DNA from: Fidelibacterota bacterium
GTDB taxonomy: Bacteria > Fidelibacterota > JAANXI01
Assembly: GCA_021734025.1 (NCBI GenBank)
Contig: JAIPJS010000017.1
Location: 6,165 to 70,164 of the forward strand
Direction: 5' to 3'
Length of the DNA: 64,000 nucleotides
Shown here one piece after another: positions 19,512-35,249 of the stretch. Each line of letters begins with the position of its first letter. The stretch's first letter is position 1. The translations under genes were made by a program, and so were the position numbers. The notes under the pieces are model-generated. The model searched no databases. It was not told the DNA's origin and saw nothing but the letters and a program-made list of their open reading frames with translations.

Positions 19512-19543
19512 TGGCCGTATTGGAAATTTAAGGGGGCCAAACG

Positions 19544-20482: not shown

Positions 20483-20550
20483 CGATAACACCATAACACA
20501 ATTACACAGTTTTAACTTAAACACTTGAACACCTGAACACACTAACACTG
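20483..20550 (+). repeat. tandem octamer NNRAACAC module upstream of start codon
   Basis: GATAACAC CATAACAC .. TTAAACAC TTGAACAC CTGAACAC ACTAACAC, ending 17 nt before the ATG at 20568. Confidence 0.6.
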
Positions 20551-20567
20551 TACAAAGGAGAATACAC

Positions 20568-21008: not shown

Positions 21009-21635
21009 ATGACATAAGCCGGTGGGAATCTTGAAACGTGCAAAATAAAAAGCGTCGACTTGAATTTTTTTCCACTTTTAACGTCAAGGTTTTGATGTCC
21101 AAGTGTTCCATGCAGGCCCGGACATGCGTTTCAAGATAAAAGTGGAATTAATTGATATAGTTCCAAAACTCCAACATCACTCTTGTTTTTAAAACTATTG
21201 CTATCTTTTAATTGCCCGCTTTTTCTTGATAAAAAACGGGCAGAAAAAATCAAGGAAACTCAGAACTCGCACTCCTATAAATATACAGGCTCTTTTGCAA
21301 CATTGGATATAGTAAATATTAACTCATTCAATTTCTACTGGGGTGCTCAAACAGCTGAGTTTCCGGTAAAAAAACTAGCAATAATTTGCTGTGCAATTTA
21401 TTTTTCGCTCTTTTAATGCCCGAGTATTCCATATACGCATCAAGACAAAAGGGCGGTTACCTGCCGTGTCAACGTTGAAAACACAATCAATACGTTGTTC
21501 ACCCTACATCCAGAAGAAATCTTCGTCTGTAAAGATGGTGGCTATCTATTTGGGCGAATTTTAATAATCCCGACGTCACCCCCTCGGAAAGCTCAGCTCC
21601 GGGAAAAGCCTCCGGTGAGGATATTGCCTAAAACA

Positions 21636-21674
21636 GTCATTCCGAGCGGAACGGAGTGGAGCCGAGGAATCTCG
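21636..21674 (+). repeat. mosaic intergenic repeat R1 (GTCATTCCGAGCG..GGAATCTCG), copy A
   Basis: Near-identical to 34989-35027; related copy at 31264-31312. Confidence 0.6.
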
Positions 21675-21759
21675 CAAATGAATTTCAGGGGTAAAATTGA
21701 TGCGCCCTTTCCTCATCGCAATAATATGTTCGTCGCGGCGAATTGCGAGGCTCTTCTTT

Positions 21760-21788
21760 GGTAGCCTTTGAATTTCATTCAAAGGCGG
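21760..21788 (+). repeat. palindromic repeat R5 (GGTAGCCTTTGAATTTCATTCAAAGGCGGA)
   Basis: Perfect hairpin CCTTTGAAT-TTC-ATTCAAAGG; second copy with 2 mismatches at 39517-39546. Confidence 0.55.
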
Positions 21789-21999
21789 ATTTTACCGGAT
21801 AAAGCCGGAAAATTTGGTTGGCGACTGTGAATTAGAATGACCCTTTCAGGGTCTCGACCCCTGAAAGGGTCGGTAGCAAATAAGGAAACTCAATGCCATT
21901 CAGTCTTTGCGGCCCAGGTGATCCGTTTGTTAAGAGGGAGAACTCGAGAAATCTAGTCTGAACACATCGGGAATGAAGTGAAAAACTAAAAAACAAGAA

Positions 22000-22221
22000 G
22001 TAGAGACGTAGCATTCAGGTTGTGTGAAAACGAAAAATCAAATAAAAAGTGAATGCTGGGCACCGGTTTGTTCTTCCAGTAGAGACGTTCCATGGAACGT
22101 CTCTACAATCAACAATATCAATGGGTTACTGTATATTATTTTGCAGAGAGGATTTTCCGGAATCAAGAGAAAAAAATCTCTTGACAAAAAATTCTCACAC
22201 AGCCTCCGTGGTACGTCTCTA
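22000..22221 (+). repeat. MITE-like structured element, copy A (about 220 bp with long terminal inverted repeats and internal hairpins)
   Basis: Ends TAGAGACGTAGCATTCAGGTTGTGTGAAAA / TTCTCACACAGCCTCCGTGGTACGTCTCTA are inverted repeats; internal perfect hairpin 22079-22106; homologous to 34393-34627. Confidence 0.55.
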
Positions 22222-22237
22222 GTCTACCATTAACTTT

Positions 22238-23119
22238 TCAGTCCTCCCGACACGTCTCCGCCACATCCTCAAATGTAAACAGCCGGGAGTGAATCGCCGG
22301 ATGATCGACGCCAAGCCGGTCGAAGCCATCGCCGCCAACGTACAGCCGGATATCATATTTCTGGCATTGCTCATAGAGATAGTTAATCTCAAACTGGATC
22401 ATATTGATATCCTGGATATATGTGCTGGAAACGTAGAGCCGGTCAATATTAACCTCGCTGAAGATCTTTTCGATGTTGAAGAGCGGGGTAATCTGTCCGC
22501 TGAACAGTACCCGATATCCGTGCTCCTCCAGAATATGATCCACCATCTTGATGGCAATGTCATGCAGCTCCGATGAGAAATTAAGGCAAAAAGCTGTTCC
22601 CTTTTTCTGCGGGGGAATCTTGATCGATCCCTGGAGCCGGATAATACTGTCCCGGATGGTCTGCGACGCAAAGTGCTCCCCGATGACGGATAATTGATCA
22701 TTCTCCCAGAGATGGCCGATCTCGTGCAGTGCTGGCGTGAGAACTTTGTCATAAATCCGGTGCAGCGGATGCTGTCCCAGGTAGAGGCCGTTCAGGATTT
22801 TCTGAATTTTTTCGCGGTTTTTGTCCAGGGCGAGGTCAAGTATTTGCCCAGACAAGTATTCATAGTCGCCTTTAATAATGTGGTAGCTCGTCTCCAGATC
22901 CGATTCGGTTTCGATGGGGAAAAGGTTGGCTTTCTGGATTTTTTCCTCATTGCGCTCAAGAAAGTCCGCCAGATGCTCCGGCAGGAATTTCCGGTGCCCC
23001 CCGGCTGTCCGGATGCACTCCAGCTTCCCGTCATCCGTCCACCGTTTGATGCTGGACACATGCACTCCAAGGATATTGCTCACCTCTTCGCTGGTAAAGT
23101 ATTTCATCTCACTCGACAC
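22238..23119 (-). CDS. MerR/excisionase-type HTH regulator with B12-binding-like C-terminal domain (LitR/CarH-like light-responsive regulator)
   Basis: N-terminal HTH (..EEVSNILGVHVSSIKRWTDDGKLECIRTAGGHRKF..); C-terminal Rossmann-like cobalamin-binding-type region with GEH and VGGDGF motifs; divergent from a carotenoid operon. Confidence 0.7.
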   Translation of the reverse strand: MSSEMKYFTSEEVSNILGVHVSSIKRWTDDGKLECIRTAGGHRKFLPEHLADFLERNEEKIQKANLFPIETESDLETSYHIIKGDYEYLSGQILDLALDKNREKIQKILNGLYLGQHPLHRIYDKVLTPALHEIGHLWENDQLSVIGEHFASQTIRDSIIRLQGSIKIPPQKKGTAFCLNFSSELHDIAIKMVDHILEEHGYRVLFSGQITPLFNIEKIFSEVNIDRLYVSSTYIQDINMIQFEINYLYEQCQKYDIRLYVGGDGFDRLGVDHPAIHSRLFTFEDVAETCRED

Positions 23120-23202
23120 AACATTTCTCCTAATTTAATTCTCCGTAAGATACTTTTACGCGAGACCAGAGTCAAATATTTTGAGCGTTATGAACTTTTT
23201 TC

Positions 23203-23231
23203 TTGACGTATAATGATTTTAAATGTATTAT
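23203..23231 (+). promoter_or_regulatory. sigma70-like promoter TTGACG-N17-TATTAT for the carotenoid operon
   Basis: -35 TTGACG 23203-23208, 17-nt spacer, -10 TATTAT 23226-23231; about 55 bp upstream of the 23285 start. Confidence 0.5.
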
Positions 23232-23234
23232 CTA

Positions 23235-23251
23235 AACGCTCAAAACGCTCA
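23235..23251 (+). promoter_or_regulatory. direct repeat AACGCTCA-A-AACGCTCA just downstream of the -10 (candidate operator for the adjacent regulator)
   Basis: Two AACGCTCA copies at 23235-23242 and 23244-23251; inverted copy TGAGCGTT at 23182-23189. Confidence 0.35.
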
Positions 23252-23284
23252 TAAAATTTTTGAAGGAGCGAAAACGGAGAAAGA

Positions 23285-23866
23285 ATGAGAAGACGGATAA
23301 TTAAATCGATAATGGTGGTAATGGCCGGAATAACCTGTCTTGCCGGACTGACTAAAGCACAGGATGTCCCGGAGGATTCCCTGTTGCACCGAGGCCGGAA
23401 TTTGTTCTATACAGCCGTGGAGAGTGAAGTTGCGCTGGATTCCGCTCAAGCGGCGTTTAAACAATTGCTCTCCGAATATTCTCAGGAATACGGAGGCCGT
23501 GCCCAAACCTACATCGGCGCCCTCACCGCACTCCGGGGCAAGCACGCTCTCTGGCCGCAGAAGAAATACAAATATGTCATGGAGGGAATTGACCAGATGG
23601 AGTCCGGCGTCGCTGCCAATCCGAATGATATCGAATCACTCTTTATATACGGTTCAACCTGCTATCACCTGCCGAGTTTCTTCGGCAAAAGCAAAGAGGC
23701 GCAAGAGGCATTCAGGCAGATAGTAGCTCTCCTGCCGGAGCATGCGGATCAATATGACGCGGATATGATGGAAAACGTCATTGAATTCCTGCGAGCCAAC
23801 GCCAATCTGGATTCCAGTGACATGATGACCCTCAGTACAATTGCCAAGGAACTCGGAAACGGATGA
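23285..23866 (+). CDS. hypothetical secreted protein, first gene of the carotenoid operon
   Basis: GGAG RBS; signal peptide (..MVVMAGITCLAGLTKAQD); helical, no recognisable catalytic motif; stop overlaps next start (ATGA). Confidence 0.6.
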   Translation: MRRRIIKSIMVVMAGITCLAGLTKAQDVPEDSLLHRGRNLFYTAVESEVALDSAQAAFKQLLSEYSQEYGGRAQTYIGALTALRGKHALWPQKKYKYVMEGIDQMESGVAANPNDIESLFIYGSTCYHLPSFFGKSKEAQEAFRQIVALLPEHADQYDADMMENVIEFLRANANLDSSDMMTLSTIAKELGNG

Positions 23867-24561
23867 TCTACGAATATCTCATATTTAACGCGATTGTGGC
23901 AGCCGGCCCGGTGGCGCTCAGTTTTGAGCGAACGGTGCGGTACGTGACGAAGTGGCGGGCTGCCATCATCGCTTCTGTAACAGCGGCGCTCCCGTTCCTT
24001 CTCTGGGATCTGCTGGTCGCCGGCAAGCACTGGCAGTTCAGCGAGGATCACACCCTGGCATCTCTGGGATTCCTGCTGCCGCCGGGGGAGATACTGTTTT
24101 TCCTCACCGTCCCGTTCGCCTGTCTCTTCATCTGGGAAGTACTCCGGAAAAGGGAATGGGCCTTGCTGAAAAGGACTTCCTTAATTTACCCGATATTTTA
24201 TGCAATCGGTGCGGCTGGAATACTCTTTCTCATTGTCACTTCCAGAGATTACACGGCGCTCGTGCTGATAACCATCGGTGTTGTGGCGCTGGCGGACCGA
24301 TTCTCTGGTGCACAATTGTTAACACAAAAGGTGACTTACACGTTTTTAGCCATCGTTACGGGACTCATTTTAGTGTTTAACGGATACCTCACCGCCCGGC
24401 CGGTGGTGCTGTACAATCCGGACGTCCTCTCAGGACTTAAAATTTTCACTATTCCGGTGGAGGATTTCCTCTACGGCTACGGCCTTATTTTGTTGGTAAC
24501 GGTTATATACACAAGAACAACCCACACGAACACTACACCCAATCACGGAGAAAACCAATGA
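23863..24561 (+). CDS. lycopene cyclase domain protein (fused CrtYcd-type)
   Basis: Membrane protein with two copies of the PxE(E/D) lycopene-cyclase motif (LPPGEILFFL and IPVEDFLYGYG). Confidence 0.7.
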   Translation: MIYEYLIFNAIVAAGPVALSFERTVRYVTKWRAAIIASVTAALPFLLWDLLVAGKHWQFSEDHTLASLGFLLPPGEILFFLTVPFACLFIWEVLRKREWALLKRTSLIYPIFYAIGAAGILFLIVTSRDYTALVLITIGVVALADRFSGAQLLTQKVTYTFLAIVTGLILVFNGYLTARPVVLYNPDVLSGLKIFTIPVEDFLYGYGLILLVTVIYTRTTHTNTTPNHGENQ

Positions 24562-26057
24562 AACGAGCAGTCATAATCGGAGCGGGCTTTGGCGGACTGG
24601 CAACGGCTATCCGTTTGCAGTCGCGGGGCTACCGCACTACGCTTCTGGAAAAGAATGCAAAAGTCGGGGGACACGCCTACCAGCTGAAGCGGGACGGCTA
24701 CACCTTCGACATGGGACCGTCGTTGATCACCGCACCGGATATTATCCAGGGTGTATTCAGTTCCGCCGGGAAACGGATGGAGGACTATCTGGATCTGACC
24801 AAACTGGATCCGTTCTACCGGATCTATTATCACGACGGAACTTATCTGGATTACACGGACGATTCCGACGATATGAAGCGTCAGATGGCGCAATTCAATC
24901 CCGGGGATGCAGAAAACTACGACGAATTCATCAACGAATCCCGGGAACTCTACAACGCCGTGATCACCGACGGGCTCGGTTCGACGCCGTTCCAGGACTG
25001 GGGCACCATGCTGGAATTTTTACCGCGAGCATTGAAGCTGAAGGCCCTCCTGCCGGCTCACACGTTCGTCAAACGTCATTTTAAAGATCCGCGGCACCGG
25101 TTTGCGTTTTCGTTTCATCCGTTGTTTATCGGCGGGAGTCCGTTTCGGGCTCCTTCAGTCTACTTGATGATCCCGTACCTGGAGAAAACCGGCGGCGTCT
25201 GGTTCAGCAAGGGGGGCATGTACAGCCTGGTGGAAGCGTTCGCCAAAGTATTCACCGAATCCGGCGGCACCATTCACACCAATTCGCCTGCCACAGAGAT
25301 CGTAGTGGAGGACGGAAAGGCTGTAGGAGTCCGGACGGACGATAACTTCTACCACGCTGACGTAGTGGTCTCAAACGCTGACTTTGCGCATACCTATCGC
25401 AACTTGGTAAAGCCGGAGCACCGATCGAAATGGTCGGATCGCAAGGTGGAAAAAATGGACTATTCCATGAGCGCCTTTCTCCTGTATCTGGGTGTGAAAA
25501 AGCAGTATCCCAAACTGAAGCACCACACTCTGATACTCTCGGAACGTTACAAAGAACTTGTGAAGGACATTTTTGACAGGAAGATTCTGCCGGACGATTT
25601 CTCCATGTACCTGCACGTGCCGACCCGCACCGATTCTGAGATGGCGCCGGAAGGAGCCGAAAGTATGTACGTGCTGATTCCGGTAGCCAATCTCGATAGC
25701 GGCATTGATTGGGAAGAGATGAAGCAGACGTACGCCGATAAAATCCTCCAATTCCTGGAGGAAGATTTCGGCTTGGAGGACCTGCGCACCAACATCGAGG
25801 TGCAGGAAATTTTTACTCCCAAGGATTTTCAGGAGCAACGAAATTCCCATCTCGGCAGCGCCTGGGGCGTGGAGCCGAAGCTCACCCAGACGGCGATTTT
25901 CCGCCCCCATAACCGCAGCGATGATATCGGCGGACTTTACTTTGTTGGCGCCAGCACCCACCCCGGCGCAGGCGTCCCGGGCGTCCTGCTGACGGCGGAG
26001 GCCACGGAGAATGCCATTCTGGAAGATATACGAAAAAATCAACTGAAAACCACGTGA
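24558..26057 (+). CDS. crtI: phytoene desaturase
   Basis: N-terminal FAD dinucleotide-binding motif (AVIIGAGFGGLATA..); overall amine-oxidase fold; adjacent to crtB. Confidence 0.85.
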   Translation: MKRAVIIGAGFGGLATAIRLQSRGYRTTLLEKNAKVGGHAYQLKRDGYTFDMGPSLITAPDIIQGVFSSAGKRMEDYLDLTKLDPFYRIYYHDGTYLDYTDDSDDMKRQMAQFNPGDAENYDEFINESRELYNAVITDGLGSTPFQDWGTMLEFLPRALKLKALLPAHTFVKRHFKDPRHRFAFSFHPLFIGGSPFRAPSVYLMIPYLEKTGGVWFSKGGMYSLVEAFAKVFTESGGTIHTNSPATEIVVEDGKAVGVRTDDNFYHADVVVSNADFAHTYRNLVKPEHRSKWSDRKVEKMDYSMSAFLLYLGVKKQYPKLKHHTLILSERYKELVKDIFDRKILPDDFSMYLHVPTRTDSEMAPEGAESMYVLIPVANLDSGIDWEEMKQTYADKILQFLEEDFGLEDLRTNIEVQEIFTPKDFQEQRNSHLGSAWGVEPKLTQTAIFRPHNRSDDIGGLYFVGASTHPGAGVPGVLLTAEATENAILEDIRKNQLKTT

Positions 26058-26064
26058 GGCCATC

Positions 26065-26979
26065 ATGAAAAAGTACTGGAAATCCGGGGAAAACAGGGTC
26101 GCCTTCGAGCACGCCAGAGATCTGACGGCGCATCACTCCAAGTCGTTTTATCTCTCCACCCGGCTGCTCCCGGAGGAAAAGCAGTGGGCCACGTTCGGCC
26201 TGTACGGTTTTTGTCGCTATGCCGATAATCTCATCGATAATCCCAGGGATCGGTCGGCAGACGAGCTAATCCGAGAAGTGGACTACCTGCACGAGGAACT
26301 CAGCATCGCGTATCGAACCGGCGAATCCGAGCATCCGATACTCCGCCCGTTTATCGCCGTGGCCAAGCGGTACGGGATTCCGGAGAAATATCCCAGAGAT
26401 TTGCTCCTGGGCGTCCGGATGGATCTGGAAATCGATCGCTATAAAACGTTCGACGAACTCTACCTGTTTGCCTATCGCGTTGCCGGTGTGGTGGGATTGA
26501 TGATGACTTCCGTGTTGGGCTACAAGGACGAGGCGGCATTTGAGTACGCAGAGAAATTGGGCATTGCCATGCAGCTGACCAATATCCTCCGGGACGTCCG
26601 CGAGGACGCCGAACGTGGCCGTATCTATCTGCCACAGGATGAACTGAAGCAGTTCGGCGTTTCCGGGCAAGCTATCCTCCGGGGAGAAATGTCGCCTGAA
26701 TTTCGGGAATTGATGCAGTTTCAGGTGGATCGGGCGCACCGGTATTACCGCGAGGCCAATCCCGGCATCAACATGCTGGCGACCAACGCCCAGTTTGCCA
26801 TCCATTCGGCAAGCAAAATCTATCGGGGAATTCTCCGGAAAATTGAAGCTCAGAATTACGATCCCTTCCAGGGACGGGTATTCGTCCCGCAGATCCAGAA
26901 GTTCGGCATCCTGATCCAGGAAGTGGTGCGAACCAAAGTCCTGGTGGCCCAGGAACGGCTTCTCCCGGCAGGAACCTAA
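26065..26979 (+). CDS. crtB: phytoene synthase
   Basis: Squalene/phytoene synthase family segments (..YCRYADNLIDN.., ..YAYRVAGVVGLMMT..). Confidence 0.85.
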   Translation: MKKYWKSGENRVAFEHARDLTAHHSKSFYLSTRLLPEEKQWATFGLYGFCRYADNLIDNPRDRSADELIREVDYLHEELSIAYRTGESEHPILRPFIAVAKRYGIPEKYPRDLLLGVRMDLEIDRYKTFDELYLFAYRVAGVVGLMMTSVLGYKDEAAFEYAEKLGIAMQLTNILRDVREDAERGRIYLPQDELKQFGVSGQAILRGEMSPEFRELMQFQVDRAHRYYREANPGINMLATNAQFAIHSASKIYRGILRKIEAQNYDPFQGRVFVPQIQKFGILIQEVVRTKVLVAQERLLPAGT

Positions 26980-26997
26980 GGATTTGGGAGACAAGAA

Positions 26998-27729
26998 ATG
27001 ATAAAGGCAGAGAAAACATGGTGGGCGGATCAGCTGTTCCGGAGGTACGTGTTCCGGTCGCTGCGAAAGCACTTCGCCGGGATATCTCTGGTAGGAGAAG
27101 TCCCAGTAATTGATCCGAAACTCCCGGTGATCCTGGCGCCGAATCACAGCACGTGGTGGGACGGATTTTTCGTCTATGCACTCAATGAGAAATTACTGAA
27201 CCGGGATCTCTACCTGATGATGACCGAAGAGCAGCTCTCCCGGTTTCCCTTTTTCCGGAAGGTCGGCGCCTATTCGATTAATCTGAAGTCCACCCGGGAT
27301 GCTCTCAATTCGCTACGGTACACTACCGAATTACTTGCGCGTGATGAAGTTCCAGGCCCGATGGCCTGCATCTTTCCCCAGGGAAAATTAGAGCCGTGGC
27401 ATCGGAGACCGCTGGAGTACAAGCCTGGATTGCAATGGATTATCAATCATTGTGTGGGTGCAGTCAGCCTGCTTCCGCTCGCTATATATGTGACATTCAT
27501 CGATCAGCAGTATCCGGAAGTGTTTATCCTCTTCGGGGAGACGTGTGAAGTCAGTTCCAGTTCCTTCCAGGGAGTGGACTGGCTTGCAGGTGAGGAGGAA
27601 AGCCTTTTGGACAGGCTGCTACAAACGGTGGATGCAGGTGAACGGAAGCAGGTGCTTTTTCAGGGAAGGCGGTCGGCAGACCAGCGCTGGAGCGGCATTA
27701 AACATCTCTGGAAAGGCGATATGTCATGA
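26998..27729 (+). CDS. lysophospholipid/glycerol-3-phosphate acyltransferase family protein (candidate carotenoid-glycoside acyltransferase)
   Basis: Acyltransferase motif NHSTWWD (H-x4-D); position between crtB and a glycosyltransferase. Confidence 0.65.
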   Translation: MIKAEKTWWADQLFRRYVFRSLRKHFAGISLVGEVPVIDPKLPVILAPNHSTWWDGFFVYALNEKLLNRDLYLMMTEEQLSRFPFFRKVGAYSINLKSTRDALNSLRYTTELLARDEVPGPMACIFPQGKLEPWHRRPLEYKPGLQWIINHCVGAVSLLPLAIYVTFIDQQYPEVFILFGETCEVSSSSFQGVDWLAGEEESLLDRLLQTVDAGERKQVLFQGRRSADQRWSGIKHLWKGDMS

Positions 27730-28847
27730 CCGTACTTTCAATCTTATTGCTCGTTCCACTGGGACTTTTGTTACTTGTCGCACTGTTCAATGCGGTGTTT
27801 ACACCCAGATTACAGAAGCATTTTCCTGTAAAGGATTCGCCGAAAGTCTCGGTTTTGGTGCCTGTCCGCAATGAAGAGGAAACCTTACCGCGCTGCCTAT
27901 TGACTTTGACTGAGCAGGATTATGGGGACTTCGAAATCCTGGTGCTGGACGATGGTTCCACCGACAAAACGCCGGACATAATCCGGGAATTTGCGGAGGA
28001 ACACGCCCGGGTGCACTATATCCCCGGTGAACCGCTTCCTGAAGAATGGTCGGGGAAGAACTGGGCGTGCCATCAGCTGAGTGCAGCAGCGACCGGAGAT
28101 ATTTTGCTCTTTACGGATGCCGATAACTGGTACCGGGACGATGCGATTTCCAGAACTATCGGATGGATGCAACAGTATGAACTCGGAATGCTTTCGGCGT
28201 TCCCGGAACAGAGCACTCATACCCTCGCCGAGCAGATGATCATCCCGATTATGGATCTGTTGGTTTACGCGGGATTGCCGCTCTGGCTGACATATTATAC
28301 GAAATTTCCATCTCTGGCAGCAGCAAACGGCCAGTGGATGGCCTTCTCCAGAGAAGCCTATAACGCGGTGGCGGGACATGCATCAGTCTGTCGGGAAATT
28401 GCCGAGGATACCGCACTGGCGCGCCGGGTAAAACAGGCCGGAATTCCCATGCTGACAATGGCGGGAACCGGGGTGGTTTTCGGCCGCATGTATAAATCGT
28501 TCAATGCCATCAAAGAAGGATTTACTAAAAACCTGTTCAGCCTGATGAACCGGCGAACCCGGCCGTATTTTATTCTGGTGGCCATCGTGCTTTTTGTCAC
28601 CATTACTCCGTACGTGTTGGTATTCGTCCCCGGATTCAGTATCGTTGGAACGGTCGGTGTCCTGTTACAAGGAGTTATGCGGCTTATTGTGGCGGTCAGG
28701 TTTTGGCATCCGCCGGTGATCAGCGCGGTATTGCACCCGGTGAGTATATCCATCTTTGCCTACATAGCCGTCAACTCGTTTTTTAAAACAAAGAGCAATG
28801 CGGTGGTCTGGAAGGACAGAACAATTGCGCTGTATAATCGTGGGTAA
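27726..28847 (+). CDS. family 2 glycosyltransferase (candidate carotenoid glycosyltransferase)
   Basis: GT2 segments (VSVLVPVRNEE.., LVLDDGSTDKT.., FTDADN); C-terminal TM helices; start overlaps previous stop (ATGA). Confidence 0.75.
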   Translation: MTVLSILLLVPLGLLLLVALFNAVFTPRLQKHFPVKDSPKVSVLVPVRNEEETLPRCLLTLTEQDYGDFEILVLDDGSTDKTPDIIREFAEEHARVHYIPGEPLPEEWSGKNWACHQLSAAATGDILLFTDADNWYRDDAISRTIGWMQQYELGMLSAFPEQSTHTLAEQMIIPIMDLLVYAGLPLWLTYYTKFPSLAAANGQWMAFSREAYNAVAGHASVCREIAEDTALARRVKQAGIPMLTMAGTGVVFGRMYKSFNAIKEGFTKNLFSLMNRRTRPYFILVAIVLFVTITPYVLVFVPGFSIVGTVGVLLQGVMRLIVAVRFWHPPVISAVLHPVSISIFAYIAVNSFFKTKSNAVVWKDRTIALYNRG

Positions 28848-28889
28848 TTTTAATCACAAATCATGAAGATATTGGTAAAAAGGAAAGTG

Positions 28890-31229
28890 ATGATGAAACG
28901 TATTTCGATAATATTTGCAGCCGTTCTGGGGATAACAGTTACTGGTGTACAGCATACGCATGCCCAGCAGACCGGCGTCATTCAGGGCACTGTGGTGGAT
29001 GCCAAAACCCAGGAGCCGCTCATCGGTGTAAACGTGGTCGTGGTGGATACCGACCTCGGGGCATCTACCGATATGGAAGGCTTTTACCGCATAACGGGCG
29101 TGCCGATCGGTACCGAGCGGCTCCGTTTTTCTTATATCGGATATGAAACACTTCTCCGGACGGACGTCATCGTCACCCGCAACAAACCGGCGCAGGAGAA
29201 CGCCGAACTCCAGCCGCAGGCAGTAGAGGGAGAAGAGGTCGTTGTGACCGCAGGTTATTTTGAGGAATTGCGAAAAGCCCAGACCAGCAAGATCCAACTC
29301 TCCAAGGAAGAGATTCGACGGTTTCCCGGTGGCTTCGAGGATGTGGTGCGAACGGTGGCAGCCCTGCCGGGAGTAGCCATAAATAACGATGGTGGCAGAA
29401 ACGACTTGCTGGTGAGGGGCGGCGGCCCGTCGGAAAATTTATACCTGATCAATAATATAGAAATCCCCAACATTAATCATTTTGGCTCCCAGGGGACGGG
29501 AAGCGGCTCCCTGAGTTTTATCAACCTGGATTTTGTGGATAAAGTGGACTTCTCCACCGGCGGATTCAGCGCGCAATACGGAGACAAGATGAGCTCTGTG
29601 CTGGCGCTGGATATGGCCGACGGACGGGAAGACCGGTTCGGGAGTAAGGTTTTAGTTTCCGCTACACAGTACGGGCTAAATGCCGAAGGTCCGCTGGGTA
29701 ACGATGGCAATTTCATCTACTCCATCCGTCGGAGCTACCTGGATCTCATTTTCGAGGCCAACGGACTGCCGTTCGTTCCGACATATACCGACTGGAATTT
29801 CGTCGCCAATTACGATGTGACACCTACGGATAAACTCTTTGTGTTGGGTATCGGCGCCTACGACGAAGTCAACCGGGATCAGAGCACCCTGGAGAGCCGG
29901 GTGTTCAACGCAGGTATTATGGACAATTCGCAGAACCGCTGGATCGGCGGACTGAACTACCGCCATCTGCTGGGCAGCGGGTATCTGGATTTCACCTTGA
30001 GTAACAATTATACGGATTTCCAGTTCAGCCAGGTGGATTCAGTCCAGACGGAATATTTTCGCAGCGAAGCTACCGAAGTGGAGACGAACCTGAAGTTGCA
30101 ACATTACTGGCGGCTGAGTAACAGTGTGAACCTGCTGAGCGGCGCATCGGTCAAGGATGTCCGGAATGAGAACACCACTACTTTCGCAGATACCATATAC
30201 AACCGGAACGGCGATCAGGTGCCGGTGAATTCGCTGGGCATACCGCAGCGGCTGGAGGAGAATTCCGACGCATTCAAGAACGCGCTCTTCTCGGAGATTC
30301 AATGGAAAATCACACCAAAATTGGAAGTTTCAACAGGCATCCGGGCGGATATTTACACCTTCCTGGATCAGCCATGGTACGTGGCGCCGCGATTCAAGAT
30401 GCGGTACGCGTTTAATGAGGTATTCAGCCTGAAATCCAGCGCCGGGATTTACTATCAGGCGCCCTCGTACGTCTGGGTGATCAACGATGTGAATACCCAG
30501 CTGAAGGCGCTGCGGAATAACATGGCGGTGGTCGGATTCGACTATCTGCTCGATGAGGATCTGCGGCTTTCGGTAGAATCCTATTACAAGGATTACCAGG
30601 ATCTACCCACCGGCGCCACACCCGGCACCGATTATCTGGTGATTACAAACACCGGCACCGGGTTCGGCGGACGGGAGAACGATTTCCAGTCCTTCGGCTA
30701 TTTTCCCATGGAATCAACAGCGTACGGCCACGCCTACGGATTCGAATTGTTTCTGCAGAAAAAATACTCCGAGGTGCCACATTACGGGAAGGCTAGTCTG
30801 ACTTACAGCAAGAGTGAATTCACTGCCGGCAACGGCAGGGTGCAGCCCGGCGAATTCGACCAGCGCTGGATCTTCAACCTGTACGGCGGATACAAGTTTA
30901 ACGCGGATTGGGAAATGAGCGGCAAATTCCGGTTCTTCACCGGCGCACCGTATACGCCGGTATATCGGCCATCGGAGAACGGCGGGGAGATTCAGAATCT
31001 GCCGGAAGAATACCTGTCGAAGCGACTCGAACCGGGACATCATCTGGACGTTCGGCTGAATCGGTACTGGAATTTTGAGAGCTGGACATTCATCGCATTC
31101 ATCGATATTCAGAACATCTACAACAATCGGATCCAGGTACGGCCGCGCTACGACTTCTGGGAGGACGAAGTCGTTGACCGGCAGGGCATCGGGATTTTGC
31201 CGTCGATTGGACTCAGCGCGGAGTTGTAG
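28890..31229 (+). CDS. TonB-dependent receptor-like outer-membrane protein with N-terminal carboxypeptidase-regulatory-like domain
   Basis: Signal peptide; CarbopepD_reg-like segment (GTVVDAKTQEPLIGVNVVVVDTDLGASTDMEGFYRI), plug-like region, long beta-barrel region; start chosen at internal ATG after AGGA RBS. Confidence 0.7.
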   Translation: MMKRISIIFAAVLGITVTGVQHTHAQQTGVIQGTVVDAKTQEPLIGVNVVVVDTDLGASTDMEGFYRITGVPIGTERLRFSYIGYETLLRTDVIVTRNKPAQENAELQPQAVEGEEVVVTAGYFEELRKAQTSKIQLSKEEIRRFPGGFEDVVRTVAALPGVAINNDGGRNDLLVRGGGPSENLYLINNIEIPNINHFGSQGTGSGSLSFINLDFVDKVDFSTGGFSAQYGDKMSSVLALDMADGREDRFGSKVLVSATQYGLNAEGPLGNDGNFIYSIRRSYLDLIFEANGLPFVPTYTDWNFVANYDVTPTDKLFVLGIGAYDEVNRDQSTLESRVFNAGIMDNSQNRWIGGLNYRHLLGSGYLDFTLSNNYTDFQFSQVDSVQTEYFRSEATEVETNLKLQHYWRLSNSVNLLSGASVKDVRNENTTTFADTIYNRNGDQVPVNSLGIPQRLEENSDAFKNALFSEIQWKITPKLEVSTGIRADIYTFLDQPWYVAPRFKMRYAFNEVFSLKSSAGIYYQAPSYVWVINDVNTQLKALRNNMAVVGFDYLLDEDLRLSVESYYKDYQDLPTGATPGTDYLVITNTGTGFGGRENDFQSFGYFPMESTAYGHAYGFELFLQKKYSEVPHYGKASLTYSKSEFTAGNGRVQPGEFDQRWIFNLYGGYKFNADWEMSGKFRFFTGAPYTPVYRPSENGGEIQNLPEEYLSKRLEPGHHLDVRLNRYWNFESWTFIAFIDIQNIYNNRIQVRPRYDFWEDEVVDRQGIGILPSIGLSAEL

Positions 31230-31263
31230 GATAGGGAATGGGGCAATTATGTAGTTCAGCTGA

Positions 31264-31312
31264 GTCATCATCCCGAGCGGAGGTTCTTCAGAACCGAAGC
31301 CGAGGGATCTCG
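31264..31312 (+). repeat. mosaic repeat R1-related copy
   Basis: GTCATCATCCCGAGCGG..CCGAGGGATCTCG related to 21636-21674 and 34989-35027. Confidence 0.45.
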
Positions 31313-31342
31313 TCAATTACACTGGGTGGTTTAAATTTCCGG

Positions 31343-31405
31343 CAAAGTAACACTTACCTCAAAGAGATCCCTGTGGGACAGAGGGCAAGACCTGGAAGGG
31401 TCGAT
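31343..31405 (+). repeat. repeat R3 copy 1 (..GTAACACTTACCTCAAAGAGATCCCTGTGGGACAG..)
   Basis: About 60-nt element repeated at 31567-31630 and in reverse orientation around 35128-35190. Confidence 0.6.
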
Positions 31406-31434
31406 AAAATTGGGAGATGAAAAACCAGGTTCAA

Positions 31435-31500
31435 CCTGTCATTTCGACCGAAGTGAACCTTTGGTTTTTAAAAGGTGAACGAAGCGGAAAAATCTCGTGA
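31435..31500 (+). repeat. repeat R2 (66 nt), copy 1
   Basis: CCTGTCATTTCGACCGAAGTGAACCTTTGGTTTTTAAAAGGTGAACGAAGCGGAAAAATCTCGTGA; second copy at 34651-34716 with 3 mismatches. Confidence 0.75.
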
Positions 31501-31566
31501 AAATCCAATAGGAATGGAAAAATAATTCAAATATTCCGGGATGACTTGCACTTTTTTTCTTGAGTG

Positions 31567-31630
31567 CAAAGTAACACTTACCTCAAAGAGACCCCTGTGG
31601 GACAGGGGTTAAGACCCTGGAAGGATCGGT
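31567..31630 (+). repeat. repeat R3 copy 2, ending 20 nt before the 31650 start
   Basis: Contains perfect hairpin ACCCCTGTGGGACAGGGGT. Confidence 0.6.
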
Positions 31631-31649
31631 TATACAAAGAAAGTGAAAA

Positions 31650-32294
31650 ATGAAGCATAAAATTAAACTCACTACCCTCTACCTCCTCCTCGGCGCCGGC
31701 GGACTCTGGCACTTGCTGGGATTGTTTCAGTCAGCGATGGCCTGGCTAGCCGGGCCGTTGCTGATTGGACTCGGTGTCTGGACTGCATGGGAGTGGTATC
31801 ACACATTATCTGAAAATCAGCGATGGCGGTATATAGGTTGGGCAACGTTCGTGATCGCGGGGAGTTTTCTCCTGGAGTGGATCGGCGTAAAAACCGGAGT
31901 GGTCTTCGGCGAGTACCATTACGGCACTGTACTTCAACCGCAAGTCGCCGGAGTGCCGGTCGCCATCGGCTTTGCCTGGCTGACGGTGATGCTCTCTTCG
32001 ACCGCTGTGGTCGGGAGGCTTCGATCCGGAATGCGGGGATGGGGACTGGTAATCGGTGGAGCGCTCTTTATGGTGACATTTGATGTGATATTAGAACTAG
32101 CCGCAATGAAACTCGGCTACTGGGAGTGGGAAGGCGTGCTGGTTCCGATACGGAATTATGTTGCCTGGTTTGCGGGCGGACTCATCTTCCTTTCCATTGG
32201 AGACCTGCTCAAGATTTTTCCGTCAAAAATTCCAAAGATTTTGATGCATATGTATTTTGCCCAGATATTGTATTTTGGGTTGGCGCTGATTTAA
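31650..32294 (+). CDS. carotenoid biosynthesis membrane protein (CruF-like, candidate carotenoid 1,2-hydratase)
   Basis: 214 aa polytopic membrane protein in a carotenoid gene neighbourhood; family assignment by context and architecture only. Confidence 0.45.
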   Translation: MKHKIKLTTLYLLLGAGGLWHLLGLFQSAMAWLAGPLLIGLGVWTAWEWYHTLSENQRWRYIGWATFVIAGSFLLEWIGVKTGVVFGEYHYGTVLQPQVAGVPVAIGFAWLTVMLSSTAVVGRLRSGMRGWGLVIGGALFMVTFDVILELAAMKLGYWEWEGVLVPIRNYVAWFAGGLIFLSIGDLLKIFPSKIPKILMHMYFAQILYFGLALI

Positions 32295-32307
32295 TAATTT
32301 TATAGAG

Positions 32308-32772
32308 GTGACTTTGAAAGTTTACAATATGGATGAAACGCAGGTATTGCCGATTTCTCTCGACGTGGCGTGGGATTTTTTCTCGGATCCGGCCAACCTG
32401 GAGGAAATTACGCCTCCGTGGCTGAAGTTCAGCATACAATCGCATGACGAGGGGGAGATGTATCCCGGAATGCTTATCCGGTACAAGGTCACCGCGCTGT
32501 TCGGCATTCCGATGAACTGGATCACCGAAATCACCCAGGTGAGGGAAGGGGAATACTTCATCGACGAGCAGCGGTTCGGTCCGTACAGGTTCTGGTATCA
32601 TCAGCATCATTTCAGCGAGGTTGAAAACGGGACGAAAATCAGGGATATTCTCCACTATGGACTGCCGTTTGGGATAATTGGAAGAATTGTACACGCAGTC
32701 AAAGTGAAGGGACAATTGCGGGAGATTTTTGAATATAGACACCGGATTTTGCGGGAACGATTTGGAGAATAA
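32308..32772 (+). CDS. SRPBCC domain protein
   Basis: 154 aa; ..VAWDFFSDPANLEEITPPWL.. typical of SRPBCC fold; GTG start. Confidence 0.7.
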   Translation: MTLKVYNMDETQVLPISLDVAWDFFSDPANLEEITPPWLKFSIQSHDEGEMYPGMLIRYKVTALFGIPMNWITEITQVREGEYFIDEQRFGPYRFWYHQHHFSEVENGTKIRDILHYGLPFGIIGRIVHAVKVKGQLREIFEYRHRILRERFGE

Positions 32773-32781
32773 TTGCGCTGT

Positions 32782-32808
32782 TTGGGGCTGAAGCCCCATT
32801 TGTTTTGT
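32782..32808 (+). terminator. rho-independent terminator candidate
   Basis: Hairpin GGGGCT-GA-AGCCCC followed by T-rich ATTTGTTTTG; second hairpin CCCCGCCATAGATGGCGGGG at 32818-32838. Confidence 0.45.
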
Positions 32809-32966
32809 GCCATTTAACCCCGCCATAGATGGCGGGGCTAGTCAATTTTGTCGCTATTCATTCATATGAATAGCCCCGGGCTTTCCCAAAGGGATCTCCA
32901 TGAGGCAGCCCGGGGATAAAGATAAACTACAAATGATTGGCCCATTAAGGCTATTGTCGCAACGAA

Positions 32967-34334
32967 ATGCAATCCAAAATCCACCCGAACCGAATTCAGC
33001 GATTAAACAACAAGAGCATCAGTCCGGACGGCTCGTACGTCCTCTACTGGATGCAGGCCTCTCAGCGGGCGGAGTGGAATCACGCGCTGGAGTATGCCAT
33101 CGAACGAGCAAACGCGATGGAAAAGCCGCTCATCGTGGTCTTCGGGATCACCGATGATTATCCCGACGCTAACGAGCGGCACTACGCGTTCATGCTTCAG
33201 GGCTTGCAGGAGGCACAGCAATCGCTCGCTGAACGCGGCATCCGAATGGTCATCCGGCACCAGCCGCCGGCAAGGGCGGCCATAGCATTTGCCAGAGATG
33301 CCGTTCTCGTCGTCACCGATCGAGGGTACCTCCGGTTCCAGCGGGTATGGCGGAGCGAGGTTGCGGAAAGTATCGAAATACCGCTGATTCAGGTGGAGAC
33401 AGGCGTCATTGTCCCGGTAGAAGTCGCCTCGGAGAAGCGGGAATACGCCGCCCGCACGATCCGACCAAAGATTCACCGGCATCTGGAGGAGTACCTGAAG
33501 CCCGTCGAACCGGTGGTATTGCATCACCACTCACTGGACATCAAATTTGAGTCCTTTGCCATAGATGATGTGGAGTCGGCACTTGCCAGCCTGGATATCG
33601 ATCCGAGTGTTCCACCAGTTGGTACTTTCACCGGCGGAACTTCGGAAGCGAAGAAACATCTCCGGGAATTCATCGAAAACAGGTTGGATCAATATGATAA
33701 CCTGCGAAACGATCCCACGAAGGAGTATCTCTCCAATATGAGCCCCTATCTGCAATTTGGGCAGATTTCGCCGCTCTATATTGCGATGCAGGTTGAGGAA
33801 ACCGAAAGTCCCGGAAAGGAGTCATACCTGGAAGAGTTAATCATCCGCCGGGAACTGAGTATGAATTTCTGCTATTATGACGAGAACTATGACAATTTTG
33901 AGTGTCTTCCGGGGTGGGCGAAGAAATCACTGGATAAGCACGCCGATGACGAGCGCGAATATCTCTACTCTCTAGAGGAGTTCGAAAACGCCAAGACCCA
34001 CGACCCGTACTGGAACGCCGCGCAAATGGAGATGGTGAAGACCGGCAAAATGCACGGCTACATGCGGATGTACTGGGGCAAGAAGATCCTGGAGTGGTCG
34101 GAGTCACCGCAGGAGGCGTACCAGATAGCCATCTTTCTCAACAACACGTACGAATTGGACGGCCGGAATCCCAACGGCTACGCCGGCGTGGCCTGGTGCT
34201 TCGGGAACCACGACCAGGGCTGGAAGGAACGACCTGTGTATGGCAAGGTGCGCTATATGAACGCGAACGGATTAAAGCGCAAGTTTGATGCGGAGGGGTA
34301 TGTGGAGAAGGTTAAAAGAATGGCACGCAGATGA
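32967..34334 (+). CDS. deoxyribodipyrimidine photolyase, class II CPD photolyase type
   Basis: Recalled class II photolyase signatures: ..YVLYWMQASQRAEWNHAL.., ..RNDPTKEYLSNMSPYLQFGQIS.., ..KTHDPYWNAAQMEMVKTGKMHGYMRMYWGKKILEWSESPQEA.. Confidence 0.85.
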   Translation: MQSKIHPNRIQRLNNKSISPDGSYVLYWMQASQRAEWNHALEYAIERANAMEKPLIVVFGITDDYPDANERHYAFMLQGLQEAQQSLAERGIRMVIRHQPPARAAIAFARDAVLVVTDRGYLRFQRVWRSEVAESIEIPLIQVETGVIVPVEVASEKREYAARTIRPKIHRHLEEYLKPVEPVVLHHHSLDIKFESFAIDDVESALASLDIDPSVPPVGTFTGGTSEAKKHLREFIENRLDQYDNLRNDPTKEYLSNMSPYLQFGQISPLYIAMQVEETESPGKESYLEELIIRRELSMNFCYYDENYDNFECLPGWAKKSLDKHADDEREYLYSLEEFENAKTHDPYWNAAQMEMVKTGKMHGYMRMYWGKKILEWSESPQEAYQIAIFLNNTYELDGRNPNGYAGVAWCFGNHDQGWKERPVYGKVRYMNANGLKRKFDAEGYVEKVKRMARR

Positions 34335-34392
34335 CGTGGAAAAAACGGATGACCACGGATTAATAGATTTGGTTAAACTAGATCAAGATGTA

Positions 34393-34627
34393 ACGACGTA
34401 ACATGCAGGGTGTGTGAAAATACGCAAGGGAACAATTGTGAGTAATCATCACATATTCCTTCTGGTAGAGACGTTTCTTGCCTGTCCCGAGATGTCGGGG
34501 GAAACGTCGCTACATACAATAGTAACAATGGCTTATCGAAGATTTTTATCGAGTGGGATTTCACTACGCTCAGAGGAAAAAATTCCTTGACAATGCATTC
34601 TCACACTGCCTCCATGCTATGTCTCTA
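34393..34627 (+). repeat. MITE-like structured element, copy B
   Basis: Homologous to 22000-22221 with shared terminal blocks and internal hairpins; compensatory changes in one stem (AGAGA/TCTCT versus AGGAA/TTCCT). Confidence 0.55.
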
Positions 34628-34650
34628 CTGCTTCCACTCATCTAATATTA

Positions 34651-34716
34651 CCTGTCATTTCGACCGAAGTGAGCCTTTGGTTTTTAAAAGGTGAACGAAG
34701 CGGAGAAATCTCGTGA
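34651..34716 (+). repeat. repeat R2, copy 2
   Basis: 66-nt near-identical copy of 31435-31500. Confidence 0.75.
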
Positions 34717-34988
34717 GTTAGACCGGAGATTCCGCTTCAACAGAACAACCCTTCATTTCCGGCTACACGATTTGTTGTCCCTTCCACACTCGGGGACTCT
34801 AATGATGGTGAATGGAGTCTCAAGAATGTGAGACGGAAAATAATTCAAATAGCCCGGAGTGCAGTGATATTGGCGGAATCCCTGGCGGTGAAAATGCCGA
34901 TTAAATTACGAGTTTCCTTAATCCTTGGCTTCCTCCGATAAAACGGTTTTCGCCAGAAATTAGAAAATATTAAAAGCAAAAAGTATAA

Positions 34989-35100
34989 GTCATTCCGAGC
35001 GAAACGAAGTGGAGTCGAGGAATCTCGTAAAGCCAACCTCTTGAGAGACAACCACGAGATCCTTCGACTCCCCCGACAAGTCGGGGTCGCTCAGGATGAC
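34989..35100 (+). repeat. 112-bp imperfect palindrome (R1 full element)
   Basis: 5' arm GTCATTCCGAGCGAAACGAAGTGGAGTCGAGGAATCTCG pairs with 3' arm CGAGATCCTTCGACTCC..TCGCTCAGGATGAC; internal hairpin CCCCGACAAGTCGGGG. Confidence 0.65.
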
Positions 35101-35202
35101 TGGTATTGTTTTCGACTGTATTCTTATGATCCTTTCAGGGCCTCGAGCACTGTCCCACAGGGATCTCTTTGAGGAAAGGGTCTGATAATACACGAGGAGA
35201 AT

Positions 35203-35238
35203 AACCGTCGGTGAGCCCTCTCAGGGTCACCGACGGTT
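35203..35238 (-). terminator. rho-independent terminator candidate for the M3 peptidase gene
   Basis: Perfect 11-bp-stem hairpin ACCGTCGGTGA..TCACCGACGGT 12 bp downstream of the minus-strand stop, followed on the minus strand by a short U-rich stretch. Confidence 0.5.
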
Positions 35239-35249
35239 ATCTTCGAAGT

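Follow-up and report, generated by a model that had tools for sequence, protein, structure and literature searches.

Cobalamin photoreceptors and carotenoid gene clusters

In Thermus thermophilus, Myxococcus xanthus and Bacillus megaterium, the CarH and LitR proteins are B12-dependent repressors of carotenoid genes that act at a divergent promoter and are released by light. The operator of Thermus CarH consists of 11-bp repeats over the -35 box. Here we describe a related arrangement in a 64,000-nucleotide stretch of DNA, the window, from a Fidelibacterota (Marinimicrobia) bacterium (GenBank assembly GCA_021734025.1, contig JAIPJS010000017.1, positions 6,165 to 70,164). In the window a CarH-like regulator gene (22238-23119, minus strand) is divergent from a carotenoid operon, and we read the block from the regulator to a class II photolyase gene as a photoprotection island under a cobalamin photoreceptor, a reading to which we give a probability of about three in four. 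The analysis covered the 64-kb window and fetched related loci, which are named L002, L003, etc.

A closer relative of the regulator than the named CarH proteins is CtMerR (WP_157850694; PDB 8JBS/8JBT). According to the part of its description used here (PMC11796333), CtMerR was found by signature mining and is an adenosylcobalamin (AdoCbl) protein that goes from tetramer to monomer in green light, with AdoCbl binding established by spectroscopy, size-exclusion chromatography with multi-angle light scattering, native mass spectrometry and crystallography. The light-sensing signature, GxxW, EH, GxxH and GxxxP, separates light-responsive from other cobalamin domains (PMC11796333). That part of the description names neither target genes nor an operator for CtMerR, whereas for the window both a regulon and an operator can be predicted.

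Carotenoid genes like those of the window are also known from cultured bacteria. Gene sets assigned to carotenoid glycoside fatty-acid esters have been described in Ignavibacterium album, Rhodothermus marinus, Salinibacter ruber and Thermomicrobium roseum (PMC3362086, PMC7414004, PMC5822342, PMC2615216), with CrtB, CrtI, CrtY, CruF, CruC and CruD, with or without CrtD and CrtO/W. I. album makes 1'-OH-torulene and deoxyflexixanthin derivatives (PMC3362086). In R. marinus, deletion of cruF-crtB, with a Thermus crtB added back, gave lycopene only (PMC7414004), and in Salinibacter and Thermomicrobium cruC was termed a 'group II glycosyl transferase' (PMC2615216). The window shares these enzyme families in one cluster; further, Ignavibacterium resembles the host in being a lineage of the Fibrobacterota-Chlorobiota-Bacteroidota group, and the R. 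marinus cluster has a MerR-type regulator (PMC7414004). The window differs from all four clusters in lacking crtD and a ketolase gene, in having the gene for a 193-aa protein (X193) as the first gene, and in including a receptor and a photolyase in the unit. The design of the island is ordinary, with both B12-photoreceptor control of carotenoid genes and the CruF/CruC/CruD pathway already established, and its host is new.

Organization of the island

A preliminary description of this DNA had proposed a light-responsive CarH/LitR island with genes for acylated carotenoid glycosides. That interpretation is supported, with regulator architecture and gene set matching known systems, and we observed directly the gene identities, gene order and motif conservation reported below. 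All eleven open reading frames (ORFs) that it listed were found in their places and its ten domain calls hold, the eleventh ORF, that of the 193-aa protein, being without a family, as had been stated. Two of the eleven, the 193-aa protein and the receptor, were underrated in it.

The regulator gene is indeed divergent from a tightly coupled operon on the plus strand, which comprises genes for the 193-aa protein (23285-23866), a 232-aa fused lycopene cyclase, CrtYcd (23863-24561), phytoene desaturase CrtI (24558-26057), phytoene synthase CrtB (26065-26979), a PlsC-type acyltransferase (26998-27729), a family 2 glycosyltransferase (GT2; 27726-28847) and a TonB-dependent receptor (28863-31229; NCBI start 28890). 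The ATGA stop/start overlaps reported at 23863, 24558 and 27726 were seen, and the remaining gaps are 7, 18 and 15 bp. Next on the same strand are genes for a CruF-family membrane protein, a putative carotenoid 1',2'-hydratase (31650-32294), for an SRPBCC/START-like protein (32308-32772) and for a 455-aa class II cyclobutane pyrimidine dimer (CPD) photolyase (32967-34334). These genes do lie downstream, as had been said, but that word hid two real breaks, one of 420 bp before cruF and one of 194 bp, with a terminator-like hairpin, before the photolyase gene.

The gene order is common to the window, L003, L082 and L084. In L082 and L084 it is uninterrupted: 193-aa gene, CrtYcd, CrtD-like, CrtI, CrtB, acyltransferase, GT2, receptor, CruF, SRPBCC and, as the final gene of the same operon, class II photolyase; L084 carries an extra UvdE (UV endonuclease) gene between CruF and SRPBCC. 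The receptors of L082 and L084 are 76% and 66% identical to that of the window. The co-localization of photoprotection genes is thus conserved and not accidental, as the order from 193-aa gene to photolyase recurs in both relatives. An assembly artefact was rejected as the origin of the arrangement: it is real because an independent assembly, SRR12088347 (L002), is identical to the window from regulator to receptor and because L003, L082 and L084 share the order. Such an island would mean that some Marinimicrobia, a phylum known from metagenomes alone, invest in sunlight protection.

The regulator

The N-terminus of the 293-aa regulator matched HTH_17 (42.4 bits), MerR_1 (31.7 bits) and MerR (28.5 bits), all above the Pfam cut-offs. 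Residues 92-159 are a B12-binding_2 cap (PF02607, 38.1 bits vs a cut-off of 23), a four-helix cap in which the Wx9EH motif is present as W138-x9-E148-H149. In a sequence search of the PDB, residues 6-271 aligned with CtMerR (8jbs_A, E 8.6e-30), the closest solved relative, and the CarH/LitR architecture claimed earlier is therefore real. The two proteins share a three-part architecture that can be aligned end to end, including the atypical HTH_17-like DNA-binding domain. T. thermophilus CarH (PDB 5C8A-F) matched the cobalamin part alone, at about 1e-5 (5c8d_A, E 6e-6); that domain is recognizably related, whereas the DNA-binding domain of the window's regulator is distant from CarH.

Three of the four light-sensing motifs are kept, as GHLW (135-138), EH (148-149, within GEH 147-149) and GQITP (208-212). 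The last of these, G208-QIT-P212, is the GxxxP loop of the dimer interface and aligns with GPNTP of CtMerR, and His186 aligns with the lower axial, cobalt-ligand His. Both proteins lack a His after the signature Trp, where Thermus CarH has His132. On sequence, then, the regulator is CarH-like and of the CtMerR subfamily, and not an orthologue of the named CarH.

Promoters and a predicted operator

The regulator and crt genes diverge from an intergenic region of 165 bp. A consensus scan predicted a crt operon promoter, TTGACG-17-TATTAT, at 23203-23231 on the plus strand, which with 10/12 matches was the best and the sole strong sigma-70-type match in 20900-35300, and a candidate regulator promoter, TTGACT-17-TATCTT (9/12), at 23147-23175 on the minus strand. 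Five bp past the crt -10 box, over the expected transcription start, is a predicted tandem operator, CGCTCA-AAA-CGCTCA, with a 9-bp period (23237-23251, plus strand), the sole exact tandem in the window. A single predicted half-site, TGAGCGTT (23182-23189, plus strand), lies 5' of the crt -35 box, beside the regulator promoter, and faces the tandem across the promoter. The octamer AACGCTCA occurs five times in the 64 kb, where 1.7 copies are expected, and three of the copies fall within 70 bp in the divergent region, namely the tandem pair at 23235-23251 and the inverted copy at 23182-23189. The tandem arrangement, its 9-bp period and its place after the -10 box set this operator apart from that of Thermus CarH.

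The same elements recur at related loci. L003, with a regulator 81% identical, has kept all three repeats as well as the -35 and -10 boxes, but not the promoter spacer, and the convergent layout of half-site and tandem is also found at promoters in L087 and L016. Across the window and all fetched loci (1.51 Mb), tandems of the form CGCyyA-N3-CGCyyA occurred 22 times, vs 0-6 times in 20 shuffles, and intergenic tandems had a common layout of TTGACn-17-TATATT-like promoter, 2-5 nt, then tandem. Such sites lie 5' of the 193-aa/crt operon in L014, L016 and L017 and 5' of receptor orthologues in L085/L086 and L087, and the L087 regulator gene is also preceded by one. Seven promoters from six lineages, when aligned, all carry an unchanged CGCTCA-N3-CGCTyA immediately past the -10 box; their two promoter boxes are conserved but the spacer is not. 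Six of the seven aligned loci have an HTH_17-B12 regulator, 40-81% identical to the window's, and loci with a classical MerR-type regulator (L006, L007, L036) carry other repeats. This co-variation of regulator and repeat is good comparative evidence for the predicted operator. Because there is no further exact copy of the operator in the window, the crt promoter region is its sole predicted direct target of the regulator. A testable operator and regulon would be available for the CtMerR branch of CarH-like photoreceptors, a branch that has a solved structure.

We propose that in the dark the AdoCbl-loaded regulator would tetramerize on the GAGCG/CGCTCA repeats, which lie beside and across the divergent promoters, and so block both the regulator and the crt promoter. 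Green or blue light would break the Co-C bond, the tetramer would fall apart and the operon would be transcribed.

Daylight expression of a homologous cluster

A diel metatranscriptome of the sponge Aplysina aerophoba (2026) found idi, lycopene cyclase and phytoene desaturase of Poribacteria enriched by day (PMC12879404). The day-enriched genes, idi, a homologue of the 193-aa gene, lycopene cyclase and phytoene desaturase, had log2 fold changes (log2FC) of about -4 to -7 (PMC12879404). The 193-aa homologue, a 'hypothetical protein' listed between idi and the cyclase and with its sequence given for bin44, had a log2FC of -6.8 (p = 3e-8; PMC12879404, supplementary tables) and was among the most strongly day-induced symbiont transcripts of the sponge (PMC12879404). 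We found this protein to be 41% identical to the window's 193-aa protein (E 4e-46), and therefore a cluster homologous to the window's follows daylight in nature. A 'TonB family protein' in the same table is TonB-type and not a receptor, and has no bearing on the window's receptor.

The Poribacteria cluster has the homologous order of 193-aa homologue, CrtYcd and desaturases, and the Poribacteria-type loci L006 and L007 also have a divergent B12 regulator. Their regulators differ, however, in being of the classical MerR type with other repeats, and in the sponge cluster idi precedes the 193-aa gene and there is no receptor. By homology, light probably controls the window's cluster as well.

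The 193-aa protein

Neither Pfam nor NCBIfam contains a family that matched the 193-aa protein, which had been called a secreted unknown protein; its N-terminus does resemble a Sec signal (MRRRIIKSIMVVMAGITCLAGLTKA/QD). The AlphaFold2 model is all-helical, with a pLDDT of 92.7, and suggests a protein resembling tetratricopeptide repeat (TPR) proteins, of an undescribed family. A Pfam search with 94 family members gave weak TPR touches alone, none significant, and a profile of the family alignment had no significant match in the PDB. Foldseek with the model returned nothing at E <= 0.001, and a specific structural kinship was rejected on that result.

The family is widespread. A word-indexed search gave 7 clusters, and a search of 1.84 billion representatives with a hidden Markov model (HMM) gave 1,413 matches at E <= 0.001, of which 77 reached E <= 1e-30. 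When 185,579 species genomes were scanned, the family was placed in 71 loci/genomes, mostly of Poribacteria, KSB1/Zhuqueibacterota, Ignavibacteria/Kapabacteria and Bacteroidota metagenome-assembled genomes (MAGs). A cyclase gene lies within 300 bp 3' of the 193-aa gene in 59 of 69 genomes, and a CrtI-family gene does in 7 more, so that in 66 of 69 it stands at the head of a carotenoid cluster. In the window and the later-added loci, matches to the family HMM fell at crt loci alone.

In L090 and L091, from another lineage, a second architecture was seen, in which the 193-aa homologue sits between a fusion of geranylgeranyl diphosphate synthase (GGPPS) with CrtB and the acyltransferase. One side of these loci (L090 5225-10382, L091 4057-10295) holds a divergent MerR-B12 regulator, CrtI, CrtYcd and CrtD-like, and the other side CruF, the GGPPS-CrtB fusion, the 193-aa homologue, the acyltransferase and GT2. 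An unnamed 'hypothetical gene 10' of R. marinus (PMC7414004) occupies the same place, a likeness by position alone.

Among the best 150 representatives of the family there were seven fusions. Their types were CruF-CrtB-domain (P0118, P0144), GGPPS-CrtB-domain (P0141) and CrtYcd-domain (P0140), and three were contig-end fragments with a CrtB C-terminus. Each fusion has a hydrophobic stretch, preceded by Arg or Lys, between enzyme and domain; by the positive-inside rule this stretch would place the 193-aa domain on the periplasmic side. Free-standing members have Sec-like N-termini, and the conserved residues of the family cluster in YxGALxALKGKHAxWP and ExLFIxGxTCYxLPFFFGR. These features point to the TPR-like protein as an extracytoplasmic accessory of carotenogenesis facing the periplasm, which could be a carrier or a scaffold alike. 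BstC (sterol, 7T1S), HusA (haem, 6CRL) and the TatT/TPAT T-component (3U64, 8G53) are known examples of small secreted proteins with an all-helical, TPR-like build and a hydrophobic or tetrapyrrole ligand. For the 193-aa protein the likeness is one of analogy alone, since ordinary TPR proteins score equally and no sequence similarity was detected.

The protein might instead be a generic TPR scaffold or assembly factor that links the membrane enzymes or stabilizes CrtB, and neither binds nor carries carotenoid. TPR folds mostly mediate protein contacts, and in some lineages the domain is fused to CrtB, CruF or CrtYcd. Fusion topology and Sec-like N-termini, in turn, would put the domain outside the cytoplasm, far from the CrtB active site, but contact with periplasmic loops of CrtYcd or CruF would still be possible. 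We rate a pure scaffold as a serious contender, at somewhat less than even odds. As a family whose genes come first in carotenoid clusters of Poribacteria, KSB1, Marinimicrobia, Ignavibacteria and Bacteroidota, the 193-aa proteins are a candidate for carotenoid handling beyond the cytoplasmic membrane.

Carotenoid genes and the likely product

The fused lycopene cyclase, CrtI, CrtB, acyltransferase, GT2 and CruF-like protein of the preliminary description were all confirmed by Pfam or NCBIfam matches. The cyclase has two Lycopene_cyc matches (72.5 bits) and passes TIGR03462 (68.7 vs a cut-off of 39.4), and CrtI passes TIGR02734 (580.9 bits vs 238). CrtB matched PF00494 (SQS_PSY) with 270 bits and was below the cut-offs of the NCBIfam CrtB equivalogs. 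The acyltransferase, whose gene overlaps the GT2 start (ATGA), matched PF01553 (33.5 bits vs 23), and the GT2 matched PF00535 with 100 bits and scored 99.5 vs 600 on the CruG equivalog. The CruF-family protein matched PF04240 (Caroten_synth) with 87.1 bits vs 25 and was below the CruF equivalogs TIGR03460 (63.8 vs 154.7) and NF045693 (32 vs 400). By family and synteny it is plausible that the GT2 is CruC and the acyltransferase CruD, each being CruC- or CruD-like by position. The acyltransferase and GT2 pair is conserved in 48/60 clusters, and the full set of CrtYcd, CrtI, CrtB, acyltransferase, GT2 and CruF follows the 193-aa gene in 48 of the 60 loci with enough sequence. The resemblance to pathways for acylated carotenoid glycosides is well founded, since the gene set is that assigned to glycoside fatty-acid esters in cultured bacteria.

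A second, CrtD-like CrtI-family paralogue, of about 32% identity, is present in 59/60 loci and in L003, L082 and L084. In the window the cyclase stop overlaps the CrtI start (23863-26057) at the place where the paralogue sits elsewhere (cf. L003 11264-12796). From its absence in the window we expect a 1'-hydroxy-gamma-carotene and not a torulene-type end group, unless a 3',4'-desaturase gene lies elsewhere in the genome. CrtB would make phytoene and CrtI lycopene, the fused CrtYcd would close one ring to give gamma-carotene, presumably a monocyclic rather than a bicyclic carotene, and the CruF-family hydratase would add the 1'-OH. The GT2 would then glycosylate the 1'-OH carotene and the acyltransferase esterify the sugar. 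Judged from the families and the characterized clusters, a 1'-hydroxy-gamma-carotene glycoside fatty-acid ester would most likely be made.

Some scores would fit a cluster that modifies squalene- or hopanoid-type lipids and not carotenoids: the CrtB-like protein scored 241 bits on HpnD, below the cut-off and about level with the phytoene synthase models, and HpnB was the best NCBIfam match of the GT2 (136 bits, below cut-off). CrtI, however, passes the phytoene desaturase cut-off (581 vs 238) and scores 40 on HpnE, a lycopene cyclase and a CruF-family gene are present, squalene-hopene cyclase and HpnC are absent, and cultured bacteria make carotenoids with the same set. A hopanoid pathway is extremely improbable and was rejected on these grounds.

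As in L003, there is a DUF1295/steroid-reductase-like membrane protein gene upstream of the regulator, at a distance of 5 kb (16585-17370). A gene of this type is inside the carotenoid cluster in L004 (13185-13991) and L012, and may encode an extra carotenoid- or isoprenoid-modifying enzyme.

The TonB-dependent receptor

Pfam confirmed the TonB-dependent receptor by its CarboxypepD_reg and Plug domains. Homologues at E <= 1e-30 number 3,719, and many of those in KSB1, Calditrichia and Marinimicrobia are about 60% identical; a metagenome scan with the receptor gave three loci, all distant and uninformative. We examined ten receptor contexts. The gene is inside the crt operon in the window, L003, L082 and L084, directly 3' of a B12 regulator gene in L014 and L036 (the latter with a classical MerR-type regulator), and just 3' of crtB in L089. 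In L085/L086 it has an operator-bearing promoter of its own and closes a block of Pyr_excise, DUF1722, HTH_17-B12 regulator, peroxiredoxin and SRPBCC genes, and in L087 it is the first gene behind an operator, followed by GTP cyclohydrolase II and the photolyase-related DPRP protein. In L088 it has no light-related neighbours, and a reversed tandem site lies 92 bp upstream. In all, 9/10 contexts have a B12 regulator, crt genes or the operator, and the receptor's link to cobalamin photoreceptors is stronger than that to carotenoid genes.

The L085 block (342-9337, Neomarinimicrobiota) is a light-stress block without carotenoid genes. It runs lipocalin, pyrimidine-dimer glycosylase, FakA/DegV, DUF1722, HTH_17-B12 regulator, peroxiredoxin, a 191-aa beta-rich secreted protein, SRPBCC, epimerase and the receptor orthologue with its own operator.

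The most economical function for the receptor would be import of the cobalamin chromophore, an assignment that we make tentatively, as it is rather more likely to be wrong than right. Like BtuB-type transporters, the receptor is a plug-and-barrel outer-membrane protein genetically tied to a cobalamin-requiring protein; it differs in the extra N-terminal CarboxypepD_reg domain and in lacking a B12 riboswitch. It belongs to the predicted light regulon, and import of the chromophore would close a feedback loop. That the receptor orthogroup follows cobalamin photoreceptors hints at a way for B12 auxotrophs to provide a light sensor with its chromophore.

These contexts could also mean that the regulator senses cobalamin supply and not light, its true job being to control the receptor as a B12 importer, with the carotenoid genes merely sharing the promoter. 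Even at loci without crt genes nearby (L085, L087, L088), the receptor orthogroup goes with B12 regulators and the operator, and CarH-type proteins are not known to repress in the apo form, so that lack of B12 would also derepress. But the regulator keeps the light-responsive signature and has a photoactive protein as its closest solved relative, the genes under common control serve photoprotection (photolyases, UvdE, Pyr_excise, DPRP, peroxiredoxin and carotenoid genes) and the Poribacteria cluster follows daylight. As a replacement for light sensing we consider B12 sensing quite improbable; the two readings are compatible and not exclusive.

The receptor and the 193-aa protein might together form an envelope arm of the light response, in which a cobalamin importer would be directly under the photoreceptor and the periplasm-facing 193-aa protein would accept the completed glycolipid pigment at the inner membrane and pass it to the outer membrane, as BstC does with sterols. 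This proposal, made by analogy, is on present evidence unlikely. If true, it would explain the tethering of the 193-aa domain by a membrane helix to CrtB, CruF or CrtYcd in some lineages, and it would give a feedback loop in which light, by destroying the chromophore, or lack of B12, by emptying the repressor, turns on the importer that refills the sensor.

Photolyase, spacers and the possible extent of light control

The photolyase passes the NCBI cut-off of TIGR00591 for the class II CPD enzymes (586.3 vs 550.05; residues 4-449 of 455) and matched PF00875 with 97 bits, in agreement with the earlier call; it would repair cyclobutane dimers. The SRPBCC protein also bears out its earlier assignment, with a Polyketide_cyc (PF03364) match of 32.8 bits vs a cut-off of 23.4. 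Its orthologues precede the photolyase gene in L082 and L084 (55-57% identity), and one is in the light operon of L085 (42%).

The receptor-to-cruF gap is 420 bp in the window (31230-31649; largely repeat elements, D1 and D3) vs 3-10 bp in L082 and L084, and the repeats that fill both spacers of the window recur at the island borders alone. The repeat families, of 44-230 bp and 73-97% identity, are almost confined to non-coding DNA, in three stretches that lie at the island's borders and in its middle. An element of about 230 bp with 30-nt terminal inverted repeats at 21994-22221 has a copy in the same orientation, with 73-84% identity, at 34384-34627, and thus brackets the whole regulator-to-photolyase block as a direct repeat. 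Shorter repeats are a pair at 31434-31500 and 34650-34716 (97% identity), a trio at 31342-31403, 31566-31628 and, inverted, 35124-35181, and a pair at 21635-21678 and 34988-35031. The short repeats look like insertions of the miniature inverted-repeat transposable element or repetitive extragenic palindrome kind. A related hairpin (GACCCTTTCAGGGTCTCGACCCC...) is also in the receptor-cruF spacer of L003. Despite the bracketing repeats, a recent horizontal insertion of the island was rejected, as its GC content is unremarkable and the genes that flank it stand in the same order in L003. An ancestral single photoprotection operon, later entered by small repeat elements, is the simplest reading; these elements would have parted cruF-SRPBCC and the photolyase gene from the regulated promoter.

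The photoreceptor might accordingly control only the genes from the 193-aa gene to the receptor, with cruF-SRPBCC and photolyase independent and possibly constitutive, the 'island' then being a matter of ancestry. The 420-bp repeat-filled spacer and the 194-bp spacer with its terminator-like hairpin fit this, as do the relatives' gaps of 10 bp or less and the lack of an operator upstream of either unit. Read-through is possible, however; uncoupling would be wasteful, as the regulated GT2 and acyltransferase depend on cruF for their products; and there is a weak -35-like match before cruF akin to that of the crt promoter, the shared -35-like word CTTTTTTCTTGA being present there as a one-mismatch match alone (31552-31563). 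Such a split is a real possibility but, on balance, doubtful.

For the proposed island under a cobalamin photoreceptor, several results count on the other side. Some concern the spacers: a search of the window found no operator copy before cruF or the photolyase gene, and a terminator-like hairpin followed by a T-run (32783-32798, plus strand), 3' of the SRPBCC gene, precedes the photolyase within the 194-bp spacer. From these two facts, part of the island may not be light-controlled here, though cruF is needed for the glycoside branch.

Others concern the regulator. The preliminary description had expected its C-terminal part to match B12-binding profiles, and the B12-binding_2 profile does so, but residues 177-265 scored 22.7 bits on the B12-binding Rossmann profile (PF02310), below the cut-off of 32.1. 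The CarH equivalog (NCBIfam NF052513) gave 43.8 bits vs a cut-off of 400. The GxxH glycine, present in CtMerR, is Ser183 (SELH 183-186), and the axial-His motif (E/D)xHxxG reads SELHDIA, its first Gly being replaced by Ser and its last by Ala. The serine may be tolerated because the glycine of CtMerR contacts the corrin via its main chain (PMC11796333).

The receptor scored 24.1 on the BtuB equivalog TIGR01779, vs a cut-off of 599.7; its PDB search matched only the plug and N-terminal extension, with no link to BtuB; and Rfam, run on the whole window, matched no family, so that neither a cobalamin riboswitch nor, in the spacers, any known RNA was present. Neither crtD nor crtE (GGPP synthase) was found in the 64-kb window, and with no specific CruC or CruD model it is guesswork which sugar and acyl chain are attached, and even where the hydroxyl sits. 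Lastly, the host is known as a MAG alone, and we infer the light response, pigment and operator binding, like the cofactor and the roles of the 193-aa protein and the receptor.

Flanking genes

Upstream of the island, the block at 14141-21008 is syntenic with L003 and holds genes for a Sensor protein (PF13796), a DNA_alkylation repair protein, an Rce1-like protease, DUF1295, DUF4097, DUF1761, TetR and SRPBCC proteins. L003 has an extra DUF1614 gene; the corresponding stretch of the window (21009-22237) is 1.2 kb long, non-coding and rich in repeats. Directly 3' of the photolyase gene, L084 has an HD/OB-fold gene, an energy-coupling factor transporter S component and a family-less protein of about 600 aa. 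The window differs in having genes for an M3 peptidase (Dcp-like, minus strand) and a YfcC-like transporter in between (35250-39233 vs 39781-43096), which indicates a local rearrangement. A 478-aa ORF at 35211-36647 on the plus strand, antisense to the peptidase gene and without a family match, is almost certainly a shadow ORF.

Four further ORFs of 332-708 aa (8710-9708, 41297-43096, 47085-48794 and 54486-56612) had no Pfam match at E <= 1e-4, and the first of these comes after a gene pair for an extracytoplasmic function sigma factor and a zf-HC2 anti-sigma factor (7428-8722). Near the end of the window, where the GC content falls to 0.42, two UDP-glucose/GDP-mannose dehydrogenase paralogues (57050-61201 and 62000-64000) suggest a surface-polysaccharide cluster.

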